From the UHGV virus genome UHGV-0397512: a DNA stretch of 5,526 bases; one strand, written 5' to 3'. The stretch is from a virus. The translations under genes were made by a program, and so were the position numbers. Shown one piece after another: positions 1 through 5,526 of this stretch. The first letter of the stretch is position 1. Each line of letters opens with the position of its first letter. The notes under the pieces were generated by a model. The model did not search any database, was not told the DNA's origin, and worked only from the letters and a program-made list of their open reading frames with translations.

Positions 1-846
1 GCAACAGGAGCTACAGGAGCAGGATCAGCAGCCGATCCGAATATGCAGCTGCAGGCATTGATGTCATTGCGACAGGTGCGGATGAACGAACGAAAGAACG
101 AGGCAGAAATCAACCTGCTCAATACGCAAGCAGAAGCACTCAAAGCAGAAGCGGGCAAAAACAAAGAAGAAACCACATCAATAATCGAAAAGAGAATATG
201 GCAGGTAAAACAGGAAATGTTCGAAGGCTGGAAAGGCTTTATCAACACAGCAAATCAACTATGGGACCAGATGGTAAAATGGCAACCCACAAAAAAAACG
301 ACGATCGACGGCAAAGAAATCGAGATACCTAAATACTTCGAAATAGAGGACGATAAATTCGGAAAGATCGTATTCGGTGAAGAATCATTCCAGGGCAATA
401 TGATGAAAGCCGAAAAACAAATCCTCGAAGGAACAGCAGCAATCAAAACTCTGGAAAGCATATATGCAGACGAAAAACTATCGACAGAAATTAAAAAAAT
501 AAACGCGGACGCATGCAGCGCAATGGCCCAAGCGGCTTACTTCTACGCAGCAGGCGAAACCCAAAAAGCAGAAGCAAAAGTACTCGAAGCAAAAAAGAAA
601 ACCGAAGAAGCAACCGCAGACCTGCGAGAACTCCAATATTGGACCGAAATAGCGAATACAATCATCAAGCTGGCACAATTAGTGGGAAACCTGGCAATCG
701 GAGGAAAAACAGGGAAAGCAATCAGAGAATACACGGAAAAAAGAATGAGCGAAACACCCCCCAAGAATTCATCGACAGTAACACAACACTACGATCCAGA
801 GATGAAATTTAAAGGAGTAGATAAGACCGTAACAACAAAATGGTAG
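1..846 (+). CDS. Minor capsid / DNA pilot protein (VP2-like), C-terminal portion. The reading frame is open from base 1. It appears to be the in-frame continuation of the ORF that runs off the window end at 5526.
   Basis: Frame 1 is open from nt 1 with no upstream stop (ATGATGAGSAADPNMQLQ...). The protein is a long Glu/Lys/Ala-rich predicted helical region, with a hydrophobic helix TEIANTIIKLAQLVGNLAIGG at about nt 640-705. The stop is TAG at 844-846. Position immediately upstream of the Rep gene, and composition, match Microviridae VP2/H-type pilot proteins. The Gly/Ala/Thr-rich N-terminal stretch continues seamlessly from the Gly-rich end of the ORF at 5164..5526. Confidence 0.72.
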   Translation, partial: ATGATGAGSAADPNMQLQALMSLRQVRMNERKNEAEINLLNTQAEALKAEAGKNKEETTSIIEKRIWQVKQEMFEGWKGFINTANQLWDQMVKWQPTKKTTIDGKEIEIPKYFEIEDDKFGKIVFGEESFQGNMMKAEKQILEGTAAIKTLESIYADEKLSTEIKKINADACSAMAQAAYFYAAGETQKAEAKVLEAKKKTEEATADLRELQYWTEIANTIIKLAQLVGNLAIGGKTGKAIREYTEKRMSETPPKNSSTVTQHYDPEMKFKGVDKTVTTKW

Positions 847-884
847 AAAAATGATTTTAAAAGGGAAAATTTCAATTAAAAGCA

Positions 885-1742
885 GTGTGTCTATATCCAA
901 GTATCATAGAGAATCCAAAGTACGCCAAATCGAATAAAAACGCCAAAGGAACAAGAGACCGTCGTCTGAGATGGATTCAAATTCCATGCGGACACTGCGA
1001 AGAATGCAGACGCGCAAAAGCAAATGAATGGAGAGTAAGATTGATGGAAGAAATAAAATATAATCCGAAAAATACTATATTTGCCACGCTGACATTCTCC
1101 GAAGAAAGCCTAAAAAAATTAGAATATGACGAAAACGAACCAAACAAAGCACCTCAAAAAGCAGTCAGCCTATTTAGAAAACGATGGTGGAAAAAGTATA
1201 AAGAACCACTCAAACACTGGCTAATCACAGAAATGGGACACGACAATACCAAAAGAATACATCTACACGGCATCGTATGGACGGAATTAACAGAGGAACA
1301 ATTCGAAAAAGAATGGGGGTACGGGTGGATATTCTTCGGGTATGAAGTAAATGAAAAAACAATAAACTACATCATAAAATACATAACGAAAAAAGACGAA
1401 AACAACCCTGAATTCAACGGAAAAATATTCACCTCGAAAAAAATCGGAATAAACTACATAAACAAAAACACACTCTACAGGCATAGATATCAAGATAAAT
1501 TCACAGAAGAAACATACAGAACAAATTCAGGAATAAAAGTAGCACTACCAACATACTACAGGCAAAAAATATGGACGGATCAAGAACGCGAAGCCCTCCG
1601 GATCATAAAAGAGGAAAAACAAGTAAAATACTACAACAAAACTCCTATCGAAGTAAAAACAATAAAACAATACGAAGAGTATGTACACGCAGTAAGATAT
1701 TGGCAATCAATCAAAAAGTATGACGGAAAGAGAAAAAAGTGA
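885..1742 (+). CDS. Rolling-circle replication initiation protein (Microviridae VP4 / phiX A-like HUH endonuclease), 285 aa.
   Basis: The N-terminus MCLYPSIIENP and the cysteine cluster PCGHCEEC (CxxCxxC) are typical of gokushovirus-type VP4. HUH motif I is IFATLTF (nt 1077-1097). Motif II is RIHLHGIVW, with HLH at nt 1260-1268. Motif III is NYIIKYITKK with two catalytic Tyr (nt 1368-1394), of the same type as phiX174 gpA YVAKYVNK. The first in-frame start after the upstream stop (858-860) is GTG at 885. There is no ATG until residue 54. Confidence 0.92.
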   Translation: MCLYPSIIENPKYAKSNKNAKGTRDRRLRWIQIPCGHCEECRRAKANEWRVRLMEEIKYNPKNTIFATLTFSEESLKKLEYDENEPNKAPQKAVSLFRKRWWKKYKEPLKHWLITEMGHDNTKRIHLHGIVWTELTEEQFEKEWGYGWIFFGYEVNEKTINYIIKYITKKDENNPEFNGKIFTSKKIGINYINKNTLYRHRYQDKFTEETYRTNSGIKVALPTYYRQKIWTDQEREALRIIKEEKQVKYYNKTPIEVKTIKQYEEYVHAVRYWQSIKKYDGKRKK

Positions 1743-1917
1743 AATATGCAAAGGATATGCAGACCTAATCATAAAAAAAGAAAAACTAATTCGTGAAATA
1801 TGGGAAACAGAATTTGCGATCAAAAAAATAGAGAATATATTGACGCGAAACAGAATAATAAAGACTACGAATGTAGAGGAGACATCGGAGACAGGTCTAC
1901 CAATCTCACAAGACTAA
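1720..1917 (+). CDS. Hypothetical small protein (65 aa), predicted helical and Glu/Lys/Ile-rich. Its start overlaps the 3' end of the Rep gene.
   Basis: An ATG at 1720 lies inside the last 23 nt of Rep. The protein-like composition (MTEREKSEICKGYADLIIKKEKLIREIWETEFAIKKIENIL...) is not the Arg/Ser-rich pattern of off-frame reading. It overlaps the next ORF by 118 nt, so only one of the two may be real across the overlap. Confidence 0.4.
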   Translation: MTEREKSEICKGYADLIIKKEKLIREIWETEFAIKKIENILTRNRIIKTTNVEETSETGLPISQD

Positions 1918-2156
1918 TCGGTGCAGAAAGAGTATCTCGACGAGACTTCAAATACGAGGGAACATACTACGTAACAGAAGATGGAGAAACATTCGACAAA
2001 GAATACGTAGAAACTCAAAAACCACAAAGAACCGGCGTCAACTTCTACGAAGTAAGCAACTGGATGTACAACGAAAAAAAACAAATGTACGAACCTGTTA
2101 TCAGAAGAATAGTAATGATCAAAAAAACCAACATTCAATTATCAATGGACCTATGA
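1800..2156 (+). CDS. Hypothetical protein (118 aa). The C-terminal two-thirds are aromatic-rich and protein-like.
   Basis: This is the first ATG after the frame-3 stop at 1791-1793. The non-overlapping part, 1918..2156 (GTYYVTEDGETFDKEYVETQKPQRTGVNFYEVSNWMYNEKKQMYEPVIRRIVMIKK), has balanced, protein-like composition. Its TGA stop (2154-2156) overlaps the ATG of the next ORF (2153-2155) in an ATGA arrangement, suggesting translational coupling. Confidence 0.5.
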   Translation: MGNRICDQKNREYIDAKQNNKDYECRGDIGDRSTNLTRLIGAERVSRRDFKYEGTYYVTEDGETFDKEYVETQKPQRTGVNFYEVSNWMYNEKKQMYEPVIRRIVMIKKTNIQLSMDL

Positions 2157-2323
2157 ATGAAAAAGTAAAAAAAATCGTAAAATGGATCGCGGTAATAGCA
2201 GCTGCAATCGGCGCTGCAGCCGCCGTAATCATGGAACAAGGATGCACTCACAAGCACTGCCTCAAAGCAAACGGCATCAAAATCGACACGATCGAAGTAT
2301 CAACATCAACAAAAATCAAGTAA
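2153..2323 (+). CDS. Small single-pass membrane protein (56 aa). It is not in the supplied ORF track. Candidate lysis or membrane-targeting protein.
   Basis: Manual translation of frame 2 gives MNEKVKKIVKWIAVIAAAIGAAAAVIMEQGCTHKHCLKANGIKIDTIEVSTSTKIK, with TAA at 2321-2323. It has a short basic N-terminus, one roughly 18-20 residue hydrophobic helix (WIAVIAAAIGAAAAVIM), and a polar C-tail containing C-x-H-x-H-C. Ala codons gca/gct/gcc match the usage in VP1 and Rep. The overlapping frame-1 ORF 2182..2394 reads the same Ala-rich stretch as Arg/Ser/Cys, an off-frame signature. The start is coupled to the upstream ORF by an ATGA overlap. The downstream ORF starts 2 nt after its stop. Confidence 0.5.
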   Translation: MNEKVKKIVKWIAVIAAAIGAAAAVIMEQGCTHKHCLKANGIKIDTIEVSTSTKIK

Positions 2324-2324
2324 C

Positions 2325-2630
2325 ATGGATAAAAGATTCAGAAATCAGCTACTTGCTGAAAGCGGAAAAAGAGAGGAAGAAATCGAAAGCGTAAACCTCG
2401 AAATCGAAGAAAGAGAAGTATCGGAAAACGGCCCGTTCGTGCTGATCCGCAACAAAAAAAACAAATGGGTAATCACGATGTGCGGCTCGCTCATAAACGG
2501 GAAAGAGTTCGACACTAAAGAGGAAGCTGAAGAACACATAGCTAAAAAAGAGTGGGACGACATCCTAACTGCAACACTCGTATTCATCTTACACGTAAAC
2601 AATGAATTGGAAAACACTCAAAAAAAATAA
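2325..2630 (+). CDS. Hypothetical protein (101 aa), with an acidic N-terminal half and a hydrophobic C-terminal segment.
   Basis: The ATG at 2325 follows the previous stop at 2321-2323 directly. The sequence is MDKRFRNQLLAESGKREEEIESVNLEIEEREVSENGPFVLIRNKKNKWVITMCGSLINGKEFDTKEEAEEHIAKKEWDDILTATLVFILHV... The stop at 2628-2630 lies 3 nt before the VP1 start. No recognisable family. By position and size it could be a scaffolding or DNA-binding accessory protein. Confidence 0.5.
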   Translation: MDKRFRNQLLAESGKREEEIESVNLEIEEREVSENGPFVLIRNKKNKWVITMCGSLINGKEFDTKEEAEEHIAKKEWDDILTATLVFILHVNNELENTQKK

Positions 2631-2633
2631 GCC

Positions 2634-4679
2634 ATGAAAAAAACATTAGGAGGAGACAGAATCCGAAGCGAAAGCAAAATGGAAGTATATCTGCCCAATT
2701 TCGGTAGATCATCGCATAACGTAGGAAAAATAATCCGAACATCGCAAGCGTGCGGCACAATCGTTCCCTATTGGTGCCAAATAGGTATGGACGGAACGAC
2801 ATTTTACATCGATATCACAACAAAAGTAAAAACGCTGCCGACAACCGGACCTGTATTCGGCAGTTTCAAACATCAAATCGACGTATTCGTAATTCCGATC
2901 AGACTCTATATAGCAGCGCTGCATAATAACGCTTTAGGAGTAGGATTGAACATGAGTAAAGTACTACTACCACAATTTCAAGTGTACACAGCCAATGCAT
3001 CGATCTACGAAAACGACACCAATAGAGGGCAAGTCAATCCGAGCTCGCTGCTCTCATACCTGGGGATCAAGGGGTTCGGGCGATCCGATGTAAATCAATA
3101 CTTCCGAAGATTTCCTGCAATATTCAATCTGGCATACTGGGACATATTCAAAAACTATTACGCCAACAAGCAAGAAGAAAACGCATACGTAGTCACCGGA
3201 ATAAACCATATTTGGAAGAAAATCAGCGCAGGAGATGGAGTTGCTTGGAATAGAGAGTGGACAGAAAACTTAAGTGAAGCATACCCACTAAATCCGTCAA
3301 GTCAAGCGCCGAGTTTCATCAAACTGGAATTCGAGGAAAAAATATCACCCGAGGAAGTCAATGAAATACAATTCTTAACAAATGATCCGGAAAAACCTAC
3401 ACAAAATATCAACAAACTAACAAAACTCGGAGATGCCTTCATATTCGAGCGAACAGACCCGGAAGCAATGGGACTAAAGAAACCAGAAAACCCGAAAAAG
3501 GCAACCAACATTTACGTGTACCAAGTCAAGAAGCCAATCAAAATTGCATACAATCTAAACATAGCAGGAAATAACTTCTTGACAATGCCGGACAACCAAA
3601 AAATCAAACTAACACCATTTCCATTAAAAAACATCGACGACGAACGAACTTCAATCTTAGCGGCACCCAGCTCCGCGGCATATATGTTAGACCATGCAAA
3701 AATGCCATACAAGGCAGCATCGGGGACTATAAACCTGCCGAGTTATGATCGGAAAAAAACATATCACAGCTCAAATGCATGGTACTCACAAGCGGGATTA
3801 GCGGTAAAAACACACCTTAGCGACAGGTTCAATAACTGGCTGAACACCGAATGGATCGACGGAACGACCGGAGGGATCAACGCGATTACAGCGGTAGATG
3901 TGAGCGACGGAAAACTCACGATGGATGCTCTGATCCTCCAGAAGAAAATCTTCAACATGCTGAACCGCGTAGCTATTACAGACGGCACTTATCAGGCGTG
4001 GAGAGAGGCAACGTACGGGATCAGAAGTACAACACTACCCGAATCTCCTATCTTCTGCGGCGGAATGCAGAGCGAAATCGCATTCGACGAAATCGTATCG
4101 AACTCAGCAACAGAGGAGGAGCCATTAGGAACACTTGCCGGCCGAGGAGTCGCAACCATGTACAAATCCGGAAGGGGCTTAAAGATCAAATGCACGGAAC
4201 CAAGCATGATCATGGCCTTAGGATCGATTACTCCTCGAGTCGATTACAGTCAAGGCAACAAGTGGTGGACGAGACTGCAAAATATGGATGACTTCCATAA
4301 GCCGACATTGGACGCAATCGGATTTCAAGAGCTGATAGCAGAAGAAGCAGCTGCATGGAGTACAGAAACCACTGAAAACTACACACACAAGTACCAATCA
4401 TTAGGAAAACAACCTTCATGGATCGAATACACAACGGATGTAAACGAAACGTACGGCGAATTTGCCGCGGGAATGCCTTTAGCATTCATGTGTTTAAACA
4501 GAGTATACGAAGAAGGTACAGATGGAACAATTTCTAACGCATCGACGTACATCGATCCGACAATATATAACAATATATTCGCAGAGTCGAGACTGAGCTC
4601 GCAAAACTTCTGGGTACAAGTAGCGTTCGACGTAACAGCACGTCGAGTAATGTCAGCAAAACAAATTCCAAATTTATAA
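2634..4679 (+). CDS. Major capsid protein (Microviridae VP1 / F-protein family), 681 aa.
   Basis: The N-terminal region LPNFGRSSHNVGKIIRTSQACGTIVPYWCQIGMDGTTFYIDITTKVKTLPTTGPVFGSFKHQIDVFVIPIRLY follows the conserved VP1 pattern (R-S-x-H...T...G-x-L-x-P......D-T-F......FFVP-x-R-L-W/Y). The C-terminus ...FWVQVAFDVTARRVMSAKQIPNL also matches the VP1 tail pattern. It is the longest ORF in the genome. An alternative start is Met16 at nt 2679. Confidence 0.92.
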   Translation: MKKTLGGDRIRSESKMEVYLPNFGRSSHNVGKIIRTSQACGTIVPYWCQIGMDGTTFYIDITTKVKTLPTTGPVFGSFKHQIDVFVIPIRLYIAALHNNALGVGLNMSKVLLPQFQVYTANASIYENDTNRGQVNPSSLLSYLGIKGFGRSDVNQYFRRFPAIFNLAYWDIFKNYYANKQEENAYVVTGINHIWKKISAGDGVAWNREWTENLSEAYPLNPSSQAPSFIKLEFEEKISPEEVNEIQFLTNDPEKPTQNINKLTKLGDAFIFERTDPEAMGLKKPENPKKATNIYVYQVKKPIKIAYNLNIAGNNFLTMPDNQKIKLTPFPLKNIDDERTSILAAPSSAAYMLDHAKMPYKAASGTINLPSYDRKKTYHSSNAWYSQAGLAVKTHLSDRFNNWLNTEWIDGTTGGINAITAVDVSDGKLTMDALILQKKIFNMLNRVAITDGTYQAWREATYGIRSTTLPESPIFCGGMQSEIAFDEIVSNSATEEEPLGTLAGRGVATMYKSGRGLKIKCTEPSMIMALGSITPRVDYSQGNKWWTRLQNMDDFHKPTLDAIGFQELIAEEAAAWSTETTENYTHKYQSLGKQPSWIEYTTDVNETYGEFAAGMPLAFMCLNRVYEEGTDGTISNASTYIDPTIYNNIFAESRLSSQNFWVQVAFDVTARRVMSAKQIPNL

Positions 4680-4683
4680 TACC

Positions 4684-5007
4684 ATGAAAACAGCAAAAAA
4701 TAGAAAGGGATGTATCGATAATCCGAACCTTACCTACGAGGCAGAACCGAGGGAAGTGAAACTAAGAAAGATAATCAGCGGAGAAGCCAGTAATATGGAG
4801 GATGGAGTATTCCCAATAATCTACACGGAAAAAAAAGATGGAGTACAACCCGAATACGACATAAGAACAGATCGATTCGAAGTAGCGATAGACGCAATAG
4901 ATAAAATCAACCAAAGCACAGCAAGCCAAATCGCAAAAAACAAGGGCGAAACCGAAGCTGCGAAAAATTTCGAGACAGAAGGAAAAACCGATCCCGAAAA
5001 AAGCTAA
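4684..5007 (+). CDS. Hypothetical protein (107 aa), encoded between VP1 and VP2. Possible scaffolding-like accessory protein.
   Basis: The ATG lies 5 nt after the VP1 stop. The composition is protein-like (…GVFPIIYTEKKDGVQPEYDIRTDRFEVAIDAIDKINQSTASQIAKNKGETEAAKNFETEGKTDPEKS), not an off-frame pattern. It is followed 30 nt downstream by a strong hairpin plus T-tract. Confidence 0.55.
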   Translation: MKTAKNRKGCIDNPNLTYEAEPREVKLRKIISGEASNMEDGVFPIIYTEKKDGVQPEYDIRTDRFEVAIDAIDKINQSTASQIAKNKGETEAAKNFETEGKTDPEKS

Positions 5008-5036
5008 AGCAGTCGTATAAAGCTCTACCAAAACTC

Positions 5037-5069
5037 AAAGAGGGGGGATATTTCCGCCCCCCCTCTTTT
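5037..5069 (+). terminator. Perfect GC-rich hairpin followed by a T-tract: an intrinsic-terminator-like element. Alternatively an ssDNA origin or priming stem-loop.
   Basis: AAAGAGGGGGG (5037-5047) pairs with CCCCCCTCTTT (5058-5068). The core is G6/C6 with loop ATATTTCCGC, and the stem runs into TCTTTT. It sits in the only large non-coding region, after the VP1/ORF107 block and before VP2. Confidence 0.55.
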
Positions 5070-5163
5070 AACCCTCGTAAATACATGTAGCACAGGGCGG
5101 TAGACGTTTATACATATATAACAAGAACATAGGTATAAATTCTTTTAGAAAAAAGAACGAAAA
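5070..5163 (+). promoter_or_regulatory. AT-rich intergenic leader upstream of the VP2 gene. Putative promoter or regulatory region.
   Basis: This is the only non-coding stretch longer than 40 nt in the genome. It is AT-rich (…GTTTATACATATATAACAAGAACATAGGTATAAATTCTTTTAGAAAAAAGAACGAAAA). It contains TATAAA and TATATA elements but no clean sigma70 -35/-10 pair and no Bacteroides TAnnTTTG. The promoter assignment rests on position only. Confidence 0.25.
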
Positions 5164-5526
5164 ATGGACTTTAAAAAACTATTAGAATTACTCGAAAAAG
5201 GAGAGGATGTTATGAACCCTTTATCGGGAATCATGGGTAAAGCATCAGGAATCCTCAACATGCTGGGCATAGGCAGGAGGAAACAGATAGAGCAACAAAA
5301 AGAAATGGTGGAGAACGCAGCCCAAATAAATTACAAATATGGAGAAATGGCTGCGAATAACGCATTCGAAAGACAGCAAGTGTTATATAACAGAACCTAT
5401 CAAGACCAAAGCTACGCCAACCAAGTCGCACAAATGGATGCGGCGGGATTATCTCCCGGCTTAATGTACGGCAAAGGAGGTGCCGGAGGCGGAGGAGCCG
5501 GTTCGACAACCGGTGCTCCAATGGGT
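5164..5526 (+). CDS. Minor capsid / DNA pilot protein (VP2-like), N-terminal portion. The ORF runs off the window end with a complete codon and continues in frame at nt 1.
   Basis: Translation gives MDFKKLLELLEKGEDVMNPLSGIMGKASGILNMLGIGRRKQIEQQKEMVENAAQINYKYGEMAANNAFERQQVLYNRTYQDQSYANQVAQMDAAGLSPGLMYGKGGAGGGGAGSTTGAPMG. The GLSPGLMYG motif followed by a Gly-rich tract is characteristic of microvirus VP2 N-terminal regions. 363 nt equals 121 complete codons, so the frame is phase-continuous with frame 1 at nt 1. An alternative start is Met at 5212, preceded by GGAGAGG (5200-5206) with 5-nt spacing. Confidence 0.7.
   Translation, partial: MDFKKLLELLEKGEDVMNPLSGIMGKASGILNMLGIGRRKQIEQQKEMVENAAQINYKYGEMAANNAFERQQVLYNRTYQDQSYANQVAQMDAAGLSPGLMYGKGGAGGGGAGSTTGAPMG

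Follow-up and report, generated by a model that had tools for sequence, protein, structure and literature searches.

The window, by which we mean the whole 5,526-nt stretch of DNA analysed here, carries genes for a capsid protein, a DNA pilot protein, and a rolling-circle initiator, together with four or five conserved small ORFs and a single intergenic region of 156 nt. All conserved ORFs lie on the plus strand, as a reading of the sequence alone had held for VP4 and VP1 relative to VP2, and the coding density is 96%. The strand shown has a strongly asymmetric base composition (A 41%, T 18%), an indirect hint only toward packaged single-stranded DNA. The features, with their principal support, are as follows:

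1 to 846, plus strand: C-terminal 281 codons and stop of VP2, the DNA pilot protein (ORF, PHROG, tblastn, intact homologues)
885 to 1742, plus strand: VP4/Rep, HUH rolling-circle initiator, 285 aa, GTG start (PF23343, phrog_942, conserved motifs)
1720 to 1917, plus strand: orf65, whose 5′ part overlaps Rep and whose 3′ part overlaps orf118 (ATG and open frame retained in all close relatives)
1800 to 2156, plus strand: orf118, accessory ORF (open in all relatives)
2153 to 2323, plus strand: orf56, with one hydrophobic helix, IVKWIAVIAAAIGAAAAVIM (conserved; gene called in all relatives)
2325 to 2630, plus strand: orf101, accessory ORF (conserved; 13, 9, and 24 variable sites at first, second, and third codon positions)
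2634 to 4679, plus strand: VP1, major capsid protein, 681 aa (PF02305, phrog_514)
4684 to 5007, plus strand: orf107, directly 3′ of VP1 (conserved; 3, 7, and 16 variable sites by codon position)
5037 to 5068, plus strand: GC-rich hairpin whose 10-nt loop separates arms AAAGAGGGGGG and CCCCCCTCTTT, with TTTT after the 3′ arm (fold)
5099 to 5127, plus strand: 29-nt motif GGTAGACGTTTATACATATATAACAAGAA (near-invariant among relatives)
5140 to 5157, plus strand: T-run/A-run palindrome, TTCTTTTAGAAAAAAGAA, shortly before the ATG of VP2 (fold)
5164 to 5526, plus strand: N-terminal 121 codons of VP2 (ORF arithmetic, PHROG pilot families, contiguous with base 1 in a public contig)

The two ends of the window join within the VP2 gene. 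Specifically, the frame opened by the ATG at 5164 reaches base 5526 in exactly 121 codons (...GSTTGAPMG), and frame 1 has no stop between base 1 (ATGATGAGSAADPN...) and the TAG at 844–846; once base 5526 is joined to base 1, the two frames form a single fused VP2 ORF of 1,209 nt and 402 aa with no interruption, bearing out the proposal of one ORF of about 400 aa. The fused protein matches eight PHROG 'pilot protein for DNA ejection' families (best E=1.2e-6), with the best stretch crossing residue 121 in seven of the eight, and matches annotated 'DNA pilot protein' genes in tblastn down to E=3e-19; no Pfam model matches VP2. Single tblastn HSPs to deposited complete circular microvirus genomes also cross the junction (VP2 residues 15–275, 38–251, and 16–198). 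More than 120 database proteins are exactly 402 aa long, 92–96% identical at 100% coverage, and intact on 5.5–5.7 kb contigs, and the 402-aa homologues align gap-free between residues 121 and 122, showing that the fused product is a pilot protein with no residues missing at the junction. Among relatives, variable sites fall mainly at third codon positions on both sides of the junction (12, 11, and 37 by codon position in the N-terminal part; 9, 6, and 56 in the C-terminal part).

The VP1 product matches PF02305 (E=1.6e-10; 40.9 bits, cut-off 25) and phrog_514 (E=6.6e-40), and is an F-type jelly-roll capsid protein. It matches 423 phage records, all microviruses among the matches listed, and weakly matches the gokushovirus capsid 8DES (E=1.5e-6, residues 429–595). 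Rep matches PF23343 (E=1.4e-11; 45 bits, cut-off 27.8) and phrog_942 (E=1.8e-32, covering residues 1–269), and contains the motifs FATLTF (1080–1097), HLH (1260–1268), and YIIKY (1368–1382), as well as a Cys cluster (C35/C38/C41). In particular, H126-L-H128 and Y162/Y166 (YxxxY) are invariant in the Rep alignment. The GTG start and the MCLYP N-terminus are kept in all close relatives, and in distant relatives Rep begins ATG-MCLYP at the same place. An HUH Rep on a small, circular molecule would also fit a non-viral rolling-circle plasmid that merely carries microvirus-like genes; we consider this reading exceedingly improbable, because the full-length F-type capsid gene and the pilot gene are under purifying selection, as judged from variable sites among relatives, and the architecture is identical to that of deposited microvirus genomes.

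The small ORFs are inferred to be coding from a third-position excess of variation and from conserved starts among relatives. The set named in the sequence-only reading is present and conserved, but two of its members overlap each other, and the reading is corrected in this respect. In orf65, third codon positions hold most of the variation across 1743–1799. The fastest-evolving part of the genome is orf118, which is annotated as a 118- or 119-aa gene in relatives, and across the lineage variation is concentrated in VP1 and in 1743–2152. No Pfam or PHROG model matches orf118 or any other small ORF. From its single hydrophobic helix, orf56 (2, 3, and 11 variable sites by codon position) is a candidate membrane or lysis protein. 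tblastn matches to orf101 are present in a distant lineage at 33% identity. A counterpart of orf107, about 45% identical, occupies the same position in distant lineages, and an ORF of its size also follows VP1 in PQ006946, MG945452, and PQ007273. The ORF position after VP1 has been proposed for a VP3-like internal scaffolding protein (PMC3394797), and by analogy orf107 may be such a scaffold.

The intergenic region folds more stably than shuffled sequences (z = −4.65) and contains three elements rather than the one hairpin initially described: that hairpin, at 5037–5068, is present, but the region also holds the 29-nt motif and the T-run/A-run palindrome. The hairpin stem has 12 pairs, 7 of them G-C; within the lineage the stem is almost invariant and the loop variable, and distant relatives have a GC hairpin of other sequence at the same place. 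A terminator scan flags it as terminator-like only on the minus strand, and we read it as a terminator on the plus strand because TTTT follows the 3′ arm; it probably acts as an intrinsic terminator at the end of the VP1-orf107 unit. Palindromes of the TTTTTTTTAAAAAAA type occur in distant relatives at the place matching 5140–5157.

In the window, the 29-nt motif follows closely on the GC hairpin and precedes VP2 by about 36 nt; it is nearly identical, and always about 35–50 nt upstream of VP2, in lineages with only 41–56% VP1 identity. Its segment 5107–5127 is the second-longest invariant run among 25 genomes. Conservation and position make the motif the best candidate for a Rep origin or a VP2-Rep promoter element. 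A sigma-70 promoter scan returned sites no more frequently than in shuffled sequences, and the phiX174 origin core CTTGATA is missing from the plus strand and occurs on the minus strand only. The more specific proposal that the motif is the plus-strand origin (the putative Rep recognition and nick site) of a large non-phiX clade of gut microviruses is tentative, and we think it somewhat doubtful; if true, the origin would be intergenic, unlike the intragenic origin of phiX174. The literature searched here revealed no defined replication origin for microviruses outside the phiX174 group.

A public SPAdes contig (L001; ENA ERZ807472 NODE_121; 5,581 nt, coverage 250x) reveals how the window closes. 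The ends of this contig share an exact, direct 55-nt terminal repeat, equal to the SPAdes k-mer size, which leaves 5,526 nt of unique sequence, the length of the window; terminal redundancy, of which none was found within the window itself, is thus present in the source contig. Rotating L001 so that it begins at its position 225 reproduces the window except for two substitutions (5358 T/G and 5481 T/G), so the two sequences represent either different haplotypes or different assemblies of one virus. Inside L001, the last 40 bases of the window run directly into its first 40. About 100 related contigs, drawn from ENA, IMG/VR, and a set of 80 human-gut metagenome contigs, are cyclic permutations opened at many different positions: their unit is 5,521–5,535 nt, with a single outlier of 5,506 nt; their terminal overlaps equal assembler k-mers (43, 54, 55, 77, 99, 109, 115, 127, and others), the 55-nt overlap being present in 43 of the 80 human-gut metagenome contigs; and two contigs of about 10 kb each (L002 and L012) are wrap-arounds of roughly 1.8 units.

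Repeats alone can give a terminal k-mer overlap, and the junction lies within a low-complexity, Gly/Ala/Thr-coding stretch, so the apparent circle could in principle be an assembly artefact (a fragment of a larger molecule, a collapsed repeat, or a chimera) with bases missing or duplicated at the join. We give this almost no weight: the window and L001 were opened at different places (window 1 and window 5303) and each is contiguous over the other's ends; dozens of independent assemblies, made with varied assemblers and k values, agree in unit length to within about 7 nt, and in them VP2 is intact and exactly 402 aa long; and the window contains no internal repeat longer than 31 nt.

Junction, gene set, and permuted relatives all agree with the proposal of an entire circular Microviridae genome cut inside VP2. 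The window has an F-type jelly-roll capsid protein, a DNA pilot protein, an HUH initiator with HUH and YxxxY motifs, and a circular genome with all genes on one strand within the class range of about 4.4–6.3 kb, as is characteristic of Microviridae; and about 5.5 kb is indeed a complete microvirus size, circular relatives of 5,528–5,728 nt matching in size and gene order. We conclude, with a probability of about 0.95, that the window comprises exactly one unit of the 5,526-nt circular genome of an uncultivated human-gut microvirus (Microviridae, non-Bullavirinae); circularity is read from assembly signatures and from the permutations, a pattern that tandem concatemers would yield as well. We are equally confident that the linear cut point, between VP2 codons 121 and 122, is arbitrary. 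The lineage is common in human-gut metagenomes, and the genome is a biologically ordinary one of a known kind.

The window could instead be, or be cut from, a prophage integrated in a gut bacterium, that is, a temperate microvirus that uses host XerC/D, like the BMV proviruses of Bacteroidetes. Temperate Bacteroidetes microviruses lack an integrase and have been proposed to rely on the host's XerC/D at dif-like sites (PMC3091885), so the absence of an integrase here is uninformative; the argument that a genome with no integrase must be a free phage is therefore weak, while its non-prophage conclusion stands because of the circular permutations. Four longer contigs (L026, L123, L137, and L185) join a relative of the virus to Bacteroidota-like DNA. 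However, the joined contigs break the virus at differing window sites (307, ~5495, 5346/5387, 2370/2454, and 2177/2222), and every break falls inside a gene. The left flank of L137 is a 99.4% match to an empty-site contig of 263 kb, but its right flank is not a continuation of that contig and is a patchwork of three gene fragments, indicating that L137 is a chimera; another contig (L044) joins the virus to tailed-phage genes. These few longer contigs look like assembly chimeras. A scan of one genome for each of 185,579 species revealed no integrated copy, its sole find being a separate scaffold of 5.7 kb within an Acinetobacter assembly. None of these contigs showed the virus flanked on each side by host DNA at a recurring attachment site, and no dif-like site was found at three or fewer mismatches to a bacterial dif consensus. 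Integration is largely refuted for the window by its exact closure as a circle and the roughly 100 free permutations, and we regard it as very unlikely.

The virus appears to have a non-integrating lifestyle. Microviridae carry single-stranded DNA in a tailless T=1 icosahedral virion. By established microvirus biology, the A-rich strand shown would be the packaged plus strand. After VP2-mediated entry, the host would synthesize a double-stranded replicative form, Rep would nick the plus-strand origin and start rolling-circle replication, and progeny single-stranded DNA would enter VP1 procapsids, possibly with orf107 as a scaffold. The VP1-orf107 transcript would probably end at the GC hairpin, and the 29-nt motif may serve as the Rep origin or the VP2-Rep promoter. 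Shine-Dalgarno motifs are absent, and neither the species scan nor comparison with the Bacteroides phage phiHBP1 provided a host link; from the Shine-Dalgarno absence, which is suggestive at most, and the gut source, Bacteroidota is no more than a guess for the host phylum.

The closest relatives belong to the same lineage and comprise contigs from the human gut and UViGs from IMG/VR (for example IMGVR_UViG_3300030365_000010 and ENA OROL01007303), which are 83–95% identical in nucleotide sequence, have the identical gene set, the 402-aa VP2, and the 5,521–5,535-nt unit, and are strain- or species-level variants. The closest named phage is bajarodmic virus 724 (PQ006946.1; 5,528 nt, circular, rodent faeces), with 56% VP1 identity; related faecal microviruses are MG945452 (5,728 nt), bajarodmic virus 18, and Dulem virus 222, and the deposited circular genome PQ007273 (5,665 nt) also matches the window in gene order and size. 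As in the window, the gene order of bajarodmic virus 724 and these relatives is VP1, an ORF of about 110 aa, the intergenic region, pilot, Rep, and two or three small ORFs, and they share the one-strand genes, the size class, the Rep MCLYP N-terminus, the intergenic GC hairpin, and the GGTAGACG..ACAAGAA motif. Differences include VP1 identity of 47–56%; pilot identity of 27–35% over the whole protein, reaching about 40% at most in local tblastn segments; DNA that is essentially unalignable (megablast gives a 56-nt stretch only); an ATG rather than a GTG start for Rep; and a source in animals, not humans. None of the nearest named records is labelled with a subfamily.

The VP1-VP2-VP4 order fits that described for Suborder III microviruses (PMC9239249). 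The window shares this order, the large VP1, and the human-gut source with Alpavirinae, the BMV proviruses, and 'Family 5' of Kirchberger et al. 2022, and as in Alpavirinae, VP1, VP2, and VP4 are the only genes that can be recognised, and the ORF after VP1 is unassigned (PMC3394797, PMC9239249). Gene content and order thus fit the description of Alpavirinae, a feature not exclusive to that group; of the Bacteroidales association of Alpavirinae, the species scan and the dif comparison gave no prophage copy, no dif-like site, and no other link to Bacteroidales, and the genome is smaller than BMV1 (5.5 kb versus 6.3 kb). Gokushovirinae were rejected: Pfam and PHROG revealed no VP3 (scaffold, PF09675) or VP5 match among the window ORFs, and VP1 matches 8DES only weakly. 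Bullavirinae (phiX174-like) were also rejected, there being no Pfam or PHROG match to external scaffold D, spike G, or DNA-binding J families and no CTTGATA on the plus strand.

Among more distant systems, phiHBP1 (PV598014), the sole cultured Bacteroidota microvirus, likewise comes from the gut and encodes a capsid protein, a pilot protein, and a Rep (PMC13064476). It differs in its length of 6,319 nt and in carrying an M15 peptidase, absent from the window; VP1 identity is about 22%, and Rep similarity is limited to the N-terminal Cys motif. phiX174 shares the replication logic of the window, an HUH Rep with two catalytic tyrosines (YxxxY). Its capsid is likewise of the F type, it too has a pilot protein and overlapping genes, and its genome is a circle of about 5.4 kb; its origin lies inside gene A, whereas the best candidate here is intergenic.

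Comparison of the window with public assemblies reveals that the viral genome is a circle of about 5.52–5.53 kb, and that the window is one exact copy of it. An exact look-up of the VP1 protein (major capsid protein) identified one public contig, ENA ERZ807472 NODE_121_length_5581_cov_249.79 (L001), in which the first 55 nt are identical to the last 55 nt and the unique length, 5,526 nt, equals that of the window. Identical 55-nt ends are what SPAdes leaves when it assembles a circle at k=55. Terminal redundancy, which the sequence-only reading had suggested seeking in the source contig, is thus present in L001; within the window itself, neither terminal redundancy nor an internal repeat longer than 31 nt was found. 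The window is a rotation of the L001 unit, with window base 1 corresponding to L001 base 225, and differs from it at only two positions: 5358 (T/G; L001 56), which produces N65K in VP2, the DNA pilot protein, and 5481 (T/G; L001 179), which is synonymous. L001 contains the window's last 40 and first 40 bases as one uninterrupted stretch, and the ends of L001 fall within the window at about 5303–5357; since L001 holds the window junction and the window holds the L001 ends, each sequence bridges the cut of the other. The base that differs at 5358 lies directly 3′ of the 55-nt terminal repeat of L001, suggesting that a strain-variant bubble at this position set the point at which the assembler opened the circle.

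The junction lies within VP2, as the sequence-only reading had proposed from an ORF starting at 5164 and a frame 1 open from the first base, both of which are present. Specifically, the 5′ part of VP2 runs from the ATG at 5164 to base 5526, comprising exactly 121 codons and ending ...GSTTGAPMG; the 3′ part stays open in frame 1, starting at base 1 (ATGATGAGSAADPN...), until the TAG at 844–846; and joining base 5526 to base 1 yields a 1,209-nt ORF encoding 402 aa. The fused protein matches eight PHROG families annotated as pilot protein for DNA ejection, and in seven of these the best stretch spans residue 121 (e.g., 64–334 and 65–181). Searches of the fused protein against homologues likewise returned pilot/VP2 matches across the junction: single tblastn segments (residues 15–275, 38–251, and 16–198) span it in deposited circular, annotated microvirus genomes, and map to genes annotated "DNA pilot protein" or "VP2". 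In a collection of 5.8 billion proteins, over 120 are exactly 402 aa long and 92–96% identical to fused VP2 across 100% of the query; nearly all come from source contigs of 5.5–5.7 kb. Their alignment with fused VP2 is gap-free at 121|122, with no extra residues at the junction. Together, these matches show that the fused ORF is a real gene. In annotation, VP2 should be joined across the window ends.

Independent assemblies of the lineage are circularly permuted relative to one another. Contigs with 93–94% identical VP2 from several human-gut projects (PRJEB14847, COST17, FENG15) have identical gene content and cyclic gene order, with cut points in different genes; most have exact terminal overlaps of 55, 88, 109, 115, or 127 nt, which leave units of 5,522–5,526 nt, and two 10-kb contigs are wrap-arounds of about 1.8 units. 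Dozens more relatives in IMG/VR have units of 5,522–5,535 nt at 83–87% nucleotide identity. A metagenome scan revealed 80 further contigs, labeled "human gut metagenome" where the record names state a source; 43 of the 80 show a 55-nt overlap, with units of 5,521–5,532 nt and one of 5,506 nt. The terminal repeat of L001, the mutual bridging of cuts, and the cyclic permutations among independent assemblies together bear out the claim of an entire circular genome: the observation is confirmed, and the interpretation as a complete circular microvirus genome is supported. In biological terms the genome is unremarkable, a complete one from an uncultivated microvirus that is abundant in public human-gut data, and the window can be used as a complete, correctly closed viral genome.

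The sequence-only reading had further concluded that the genome is free or episomal rather than a prophage. This conclusion holds, but its argument from the lack of an integrase does not, since temperate Bacteroidetes microviruses also lack an integrase and probably rely on the XerC/D recombinases of the host, acting at dif-like sites (PMC3091885). No dif-like XerC/D site was found in the window at ≤3 mismatches to a bacterial dif consensus. A scan of 185,579 species, each represented by one genome, revealed no integrated copy; the only hits were a partial MAG match and a stand-alone scaffold of 5,673 nt in an Acinetobacter lwoffii isolate assembly (L019; NZ_JACWEU010000076.1), a complete relative at 85% nucleotide identity that probably reflects contamination of the sample or run and not a host association.

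Integration could nevertheless be proposed from five longer contigs that join a relative to other DNA (L026, 5543–11646; L044, 1–4620; L123, 1–7178; L137, 1–9820 and 15270–16110; L185, 5486–7169). In these contigs the virus part is about one unit or part of one, and the partners are Bacteroidota-like chromosomal or tailed-phage DNA. In particular, L026 is joined at a G-rich stretch of VP2 to Bacteroidota-type integrase genes, and L044 is joined to tailed-phage genes; IMG/VR lists both as viral genomes. The breakpoints differ, each falling inside a gene (window 307, about 5495, 5346/5387, 2370/2454, and 2177/2222). L137 most resembled an insertion, in a polysaccharide locus: its left flank continues a 263-kb contig with an empty site (L186) at 99.4% identity. 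The right flank does not continue it and is a patchwork of three unrelated gene fragments, showing L137 to be chimeric. We read all five contigs as assembly chimeras.

Every conserved ORF is on the + strand; together they account for 96% of the sequence. Besides VP2, they include:

885–1742, + strand: Rep (VP4), the HUH rolling-circle initiator; matches PF23343 and, over residues 1–269, phrog_942
1720–1917, + strand: orf65; open in relatives
1800–2156, + strand: orf118; open in relatives
2153–2323, + strand: orf56; 56 aa, one hydrophobic helix, well conserved among members of the lineage
2634–4679, + strand: VP1; 681 aa, matches PF02305 and phrog_514

The Rep motifs FATLTF, HUH (H126-L-H128), and YIIKY (Y162, Y166) are invariant across relatives at 46–51% identity. 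Rep starts with a GTG at 885–887 that is kept in all close relatives; its frame opens only at 861, with no ATG before the conserved MCLYP...CGxCxEC N-terminus, and in distant relatives the homologous MCLYP start reads ATG-TGY-CTN-TAT-CCA. Automatic and public gene calls take internal ATGs, shortening Rep to 232 or 250 aa, and the annotated start should be set at the GTG.

Among relatives that are about 90% identical, variable sites are concentrated at third codon positions in VP2, Rep, VP1, orf56, orf101, and orf107. The small ORFs have no match in Pfam or PHROGs. Read in different frames, orf65 and orf118 share 118 nt; their region (1720–2156) varies more than any other in the genome, with 35% invariant sites, and the conserved portions lie N-terminally in orf65 and C-terminally in orf118. 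A programmed −1 frameshift from orf65 to orf118 at the A7 run (1822–1828) was considered and rejected because the run is not conserved in relatives (AIKKIE → ATRKVE); a simple gene overlap is the preferred reading. The orf56 product is possibly a membrane or lysis protein, the lysis role being a guess. The orf107 product is about 45% identical in distant lineages, and a VP3-like scaffold has been proposed for Alpavirinae at the position where orf107 sits (PMC3394797). Scans of the window for tRNAs and Rfam families found none.

The intergenic region 5008–5163 folds far better than shuffled sequences (z = −4.65) and holds three elements:

5037–5068: GC hairpin with an 11-bp stem and a 10-nt loop, followed by TTTT
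5099–5127: 29-nt motif, GGTAGACGTTTATACATATATAACAAGAA
5140–5157: T-run/A-run palindrome, conserved in kind

Within the lineage, the stem of the GC hairpin is almost invariant and its loop is variable; viruses at 41–56% VP1 identity also carry a GC hairpin downstream of their orf107 homologue, in the equivalent position but unrelated in sequence (L016, about 2443–2474; L017, about 4350–4375; L081, about 314–335). That the structure is kept while the sequence is not suggests that the hairpin is functional, the simplest reading being a putative intrinsic terminator. Neither a sigma-70 promoter scan nor a terminator scan showed enrichment over shuffles, and only this hairpin stood out. Between the hairpin and the motif, a small palindrome at 5076–5085 varies among strains (CGTAAATACA, CGCAAATGCG, CATAAATATG), with T-A to C-G changes at paired positions and with pairing broken in some strains.

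Across 25 genomes, where only 56% of sites never vary, the last 21 nt of the 29-nt motif (5107–5127) rank second in length among the invariant runs. The motif is nearly unchanged in lineages at 41–56% VP1 identity, always about 35–50 nt upstream of VP2; such conservation of non-coding DNA far beyond that of the proteins points to a cis-acting site. We favor either a Rep recognition/nick site (origin) or a promoter element as candidate functions. The phiX174/pC194 nick core CTTGATA was rejected as an origin signal, being found on the minus strand only and at chance frequency, and a literature search on replication origins of non-phiX microviruses returned nothing relevant. The motif is a testable candidate for the replication origin or a key promoter of gut microviruses, and is the sole feature of the genome worth follow-up. 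The longest invariant run among the 25 genomes, 27 nt at 4647–4673 (GTAATGTCAGCAAAACAAATTCCAAAT), is found at the 3′ end of VP1, and some of its positions are synonymous; its DNA is also highly conserved in relatives with about 50% VP1 identity, and a cis element overlapping VP1 is possible.

In human-gut metagenomes the lineage is widespread, represented by hundreds of contigs from several cohorts, yet its best named relative among deposited phages has 56% capsid identity, making it a reasonable candidate for formal description. No near-identical deposited phage was found, megablast returning only a 56-nt stretch. Searches for a host link found none. No Shine-Dalgarno-like sequence is present in the 25 nt upstream of any of the eight gene starts, where the sequence is A-rich (A makes up 41% of the + strand and T 18%); this absence is compatible with, and no proof of, a Bacteroidota host. 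The only cultured Bacteroidota microvirus, phiHBP1 of B. fragilis (PV598014; PMC13064476), is very distant, at about 22% VP1 identity with the window, and so gives no guidance on the host. Among deposited phages, the closest are microviruses from the faeces of rodents, civet, and lemurs, which have 47–56% VP1 identity, the same gene order, and sizes of 5.5–5.9 kb, and the features of the window fit published descriptions of Alpavirinae and Suborder III microviruses (PMC3394797, PMC9239249).
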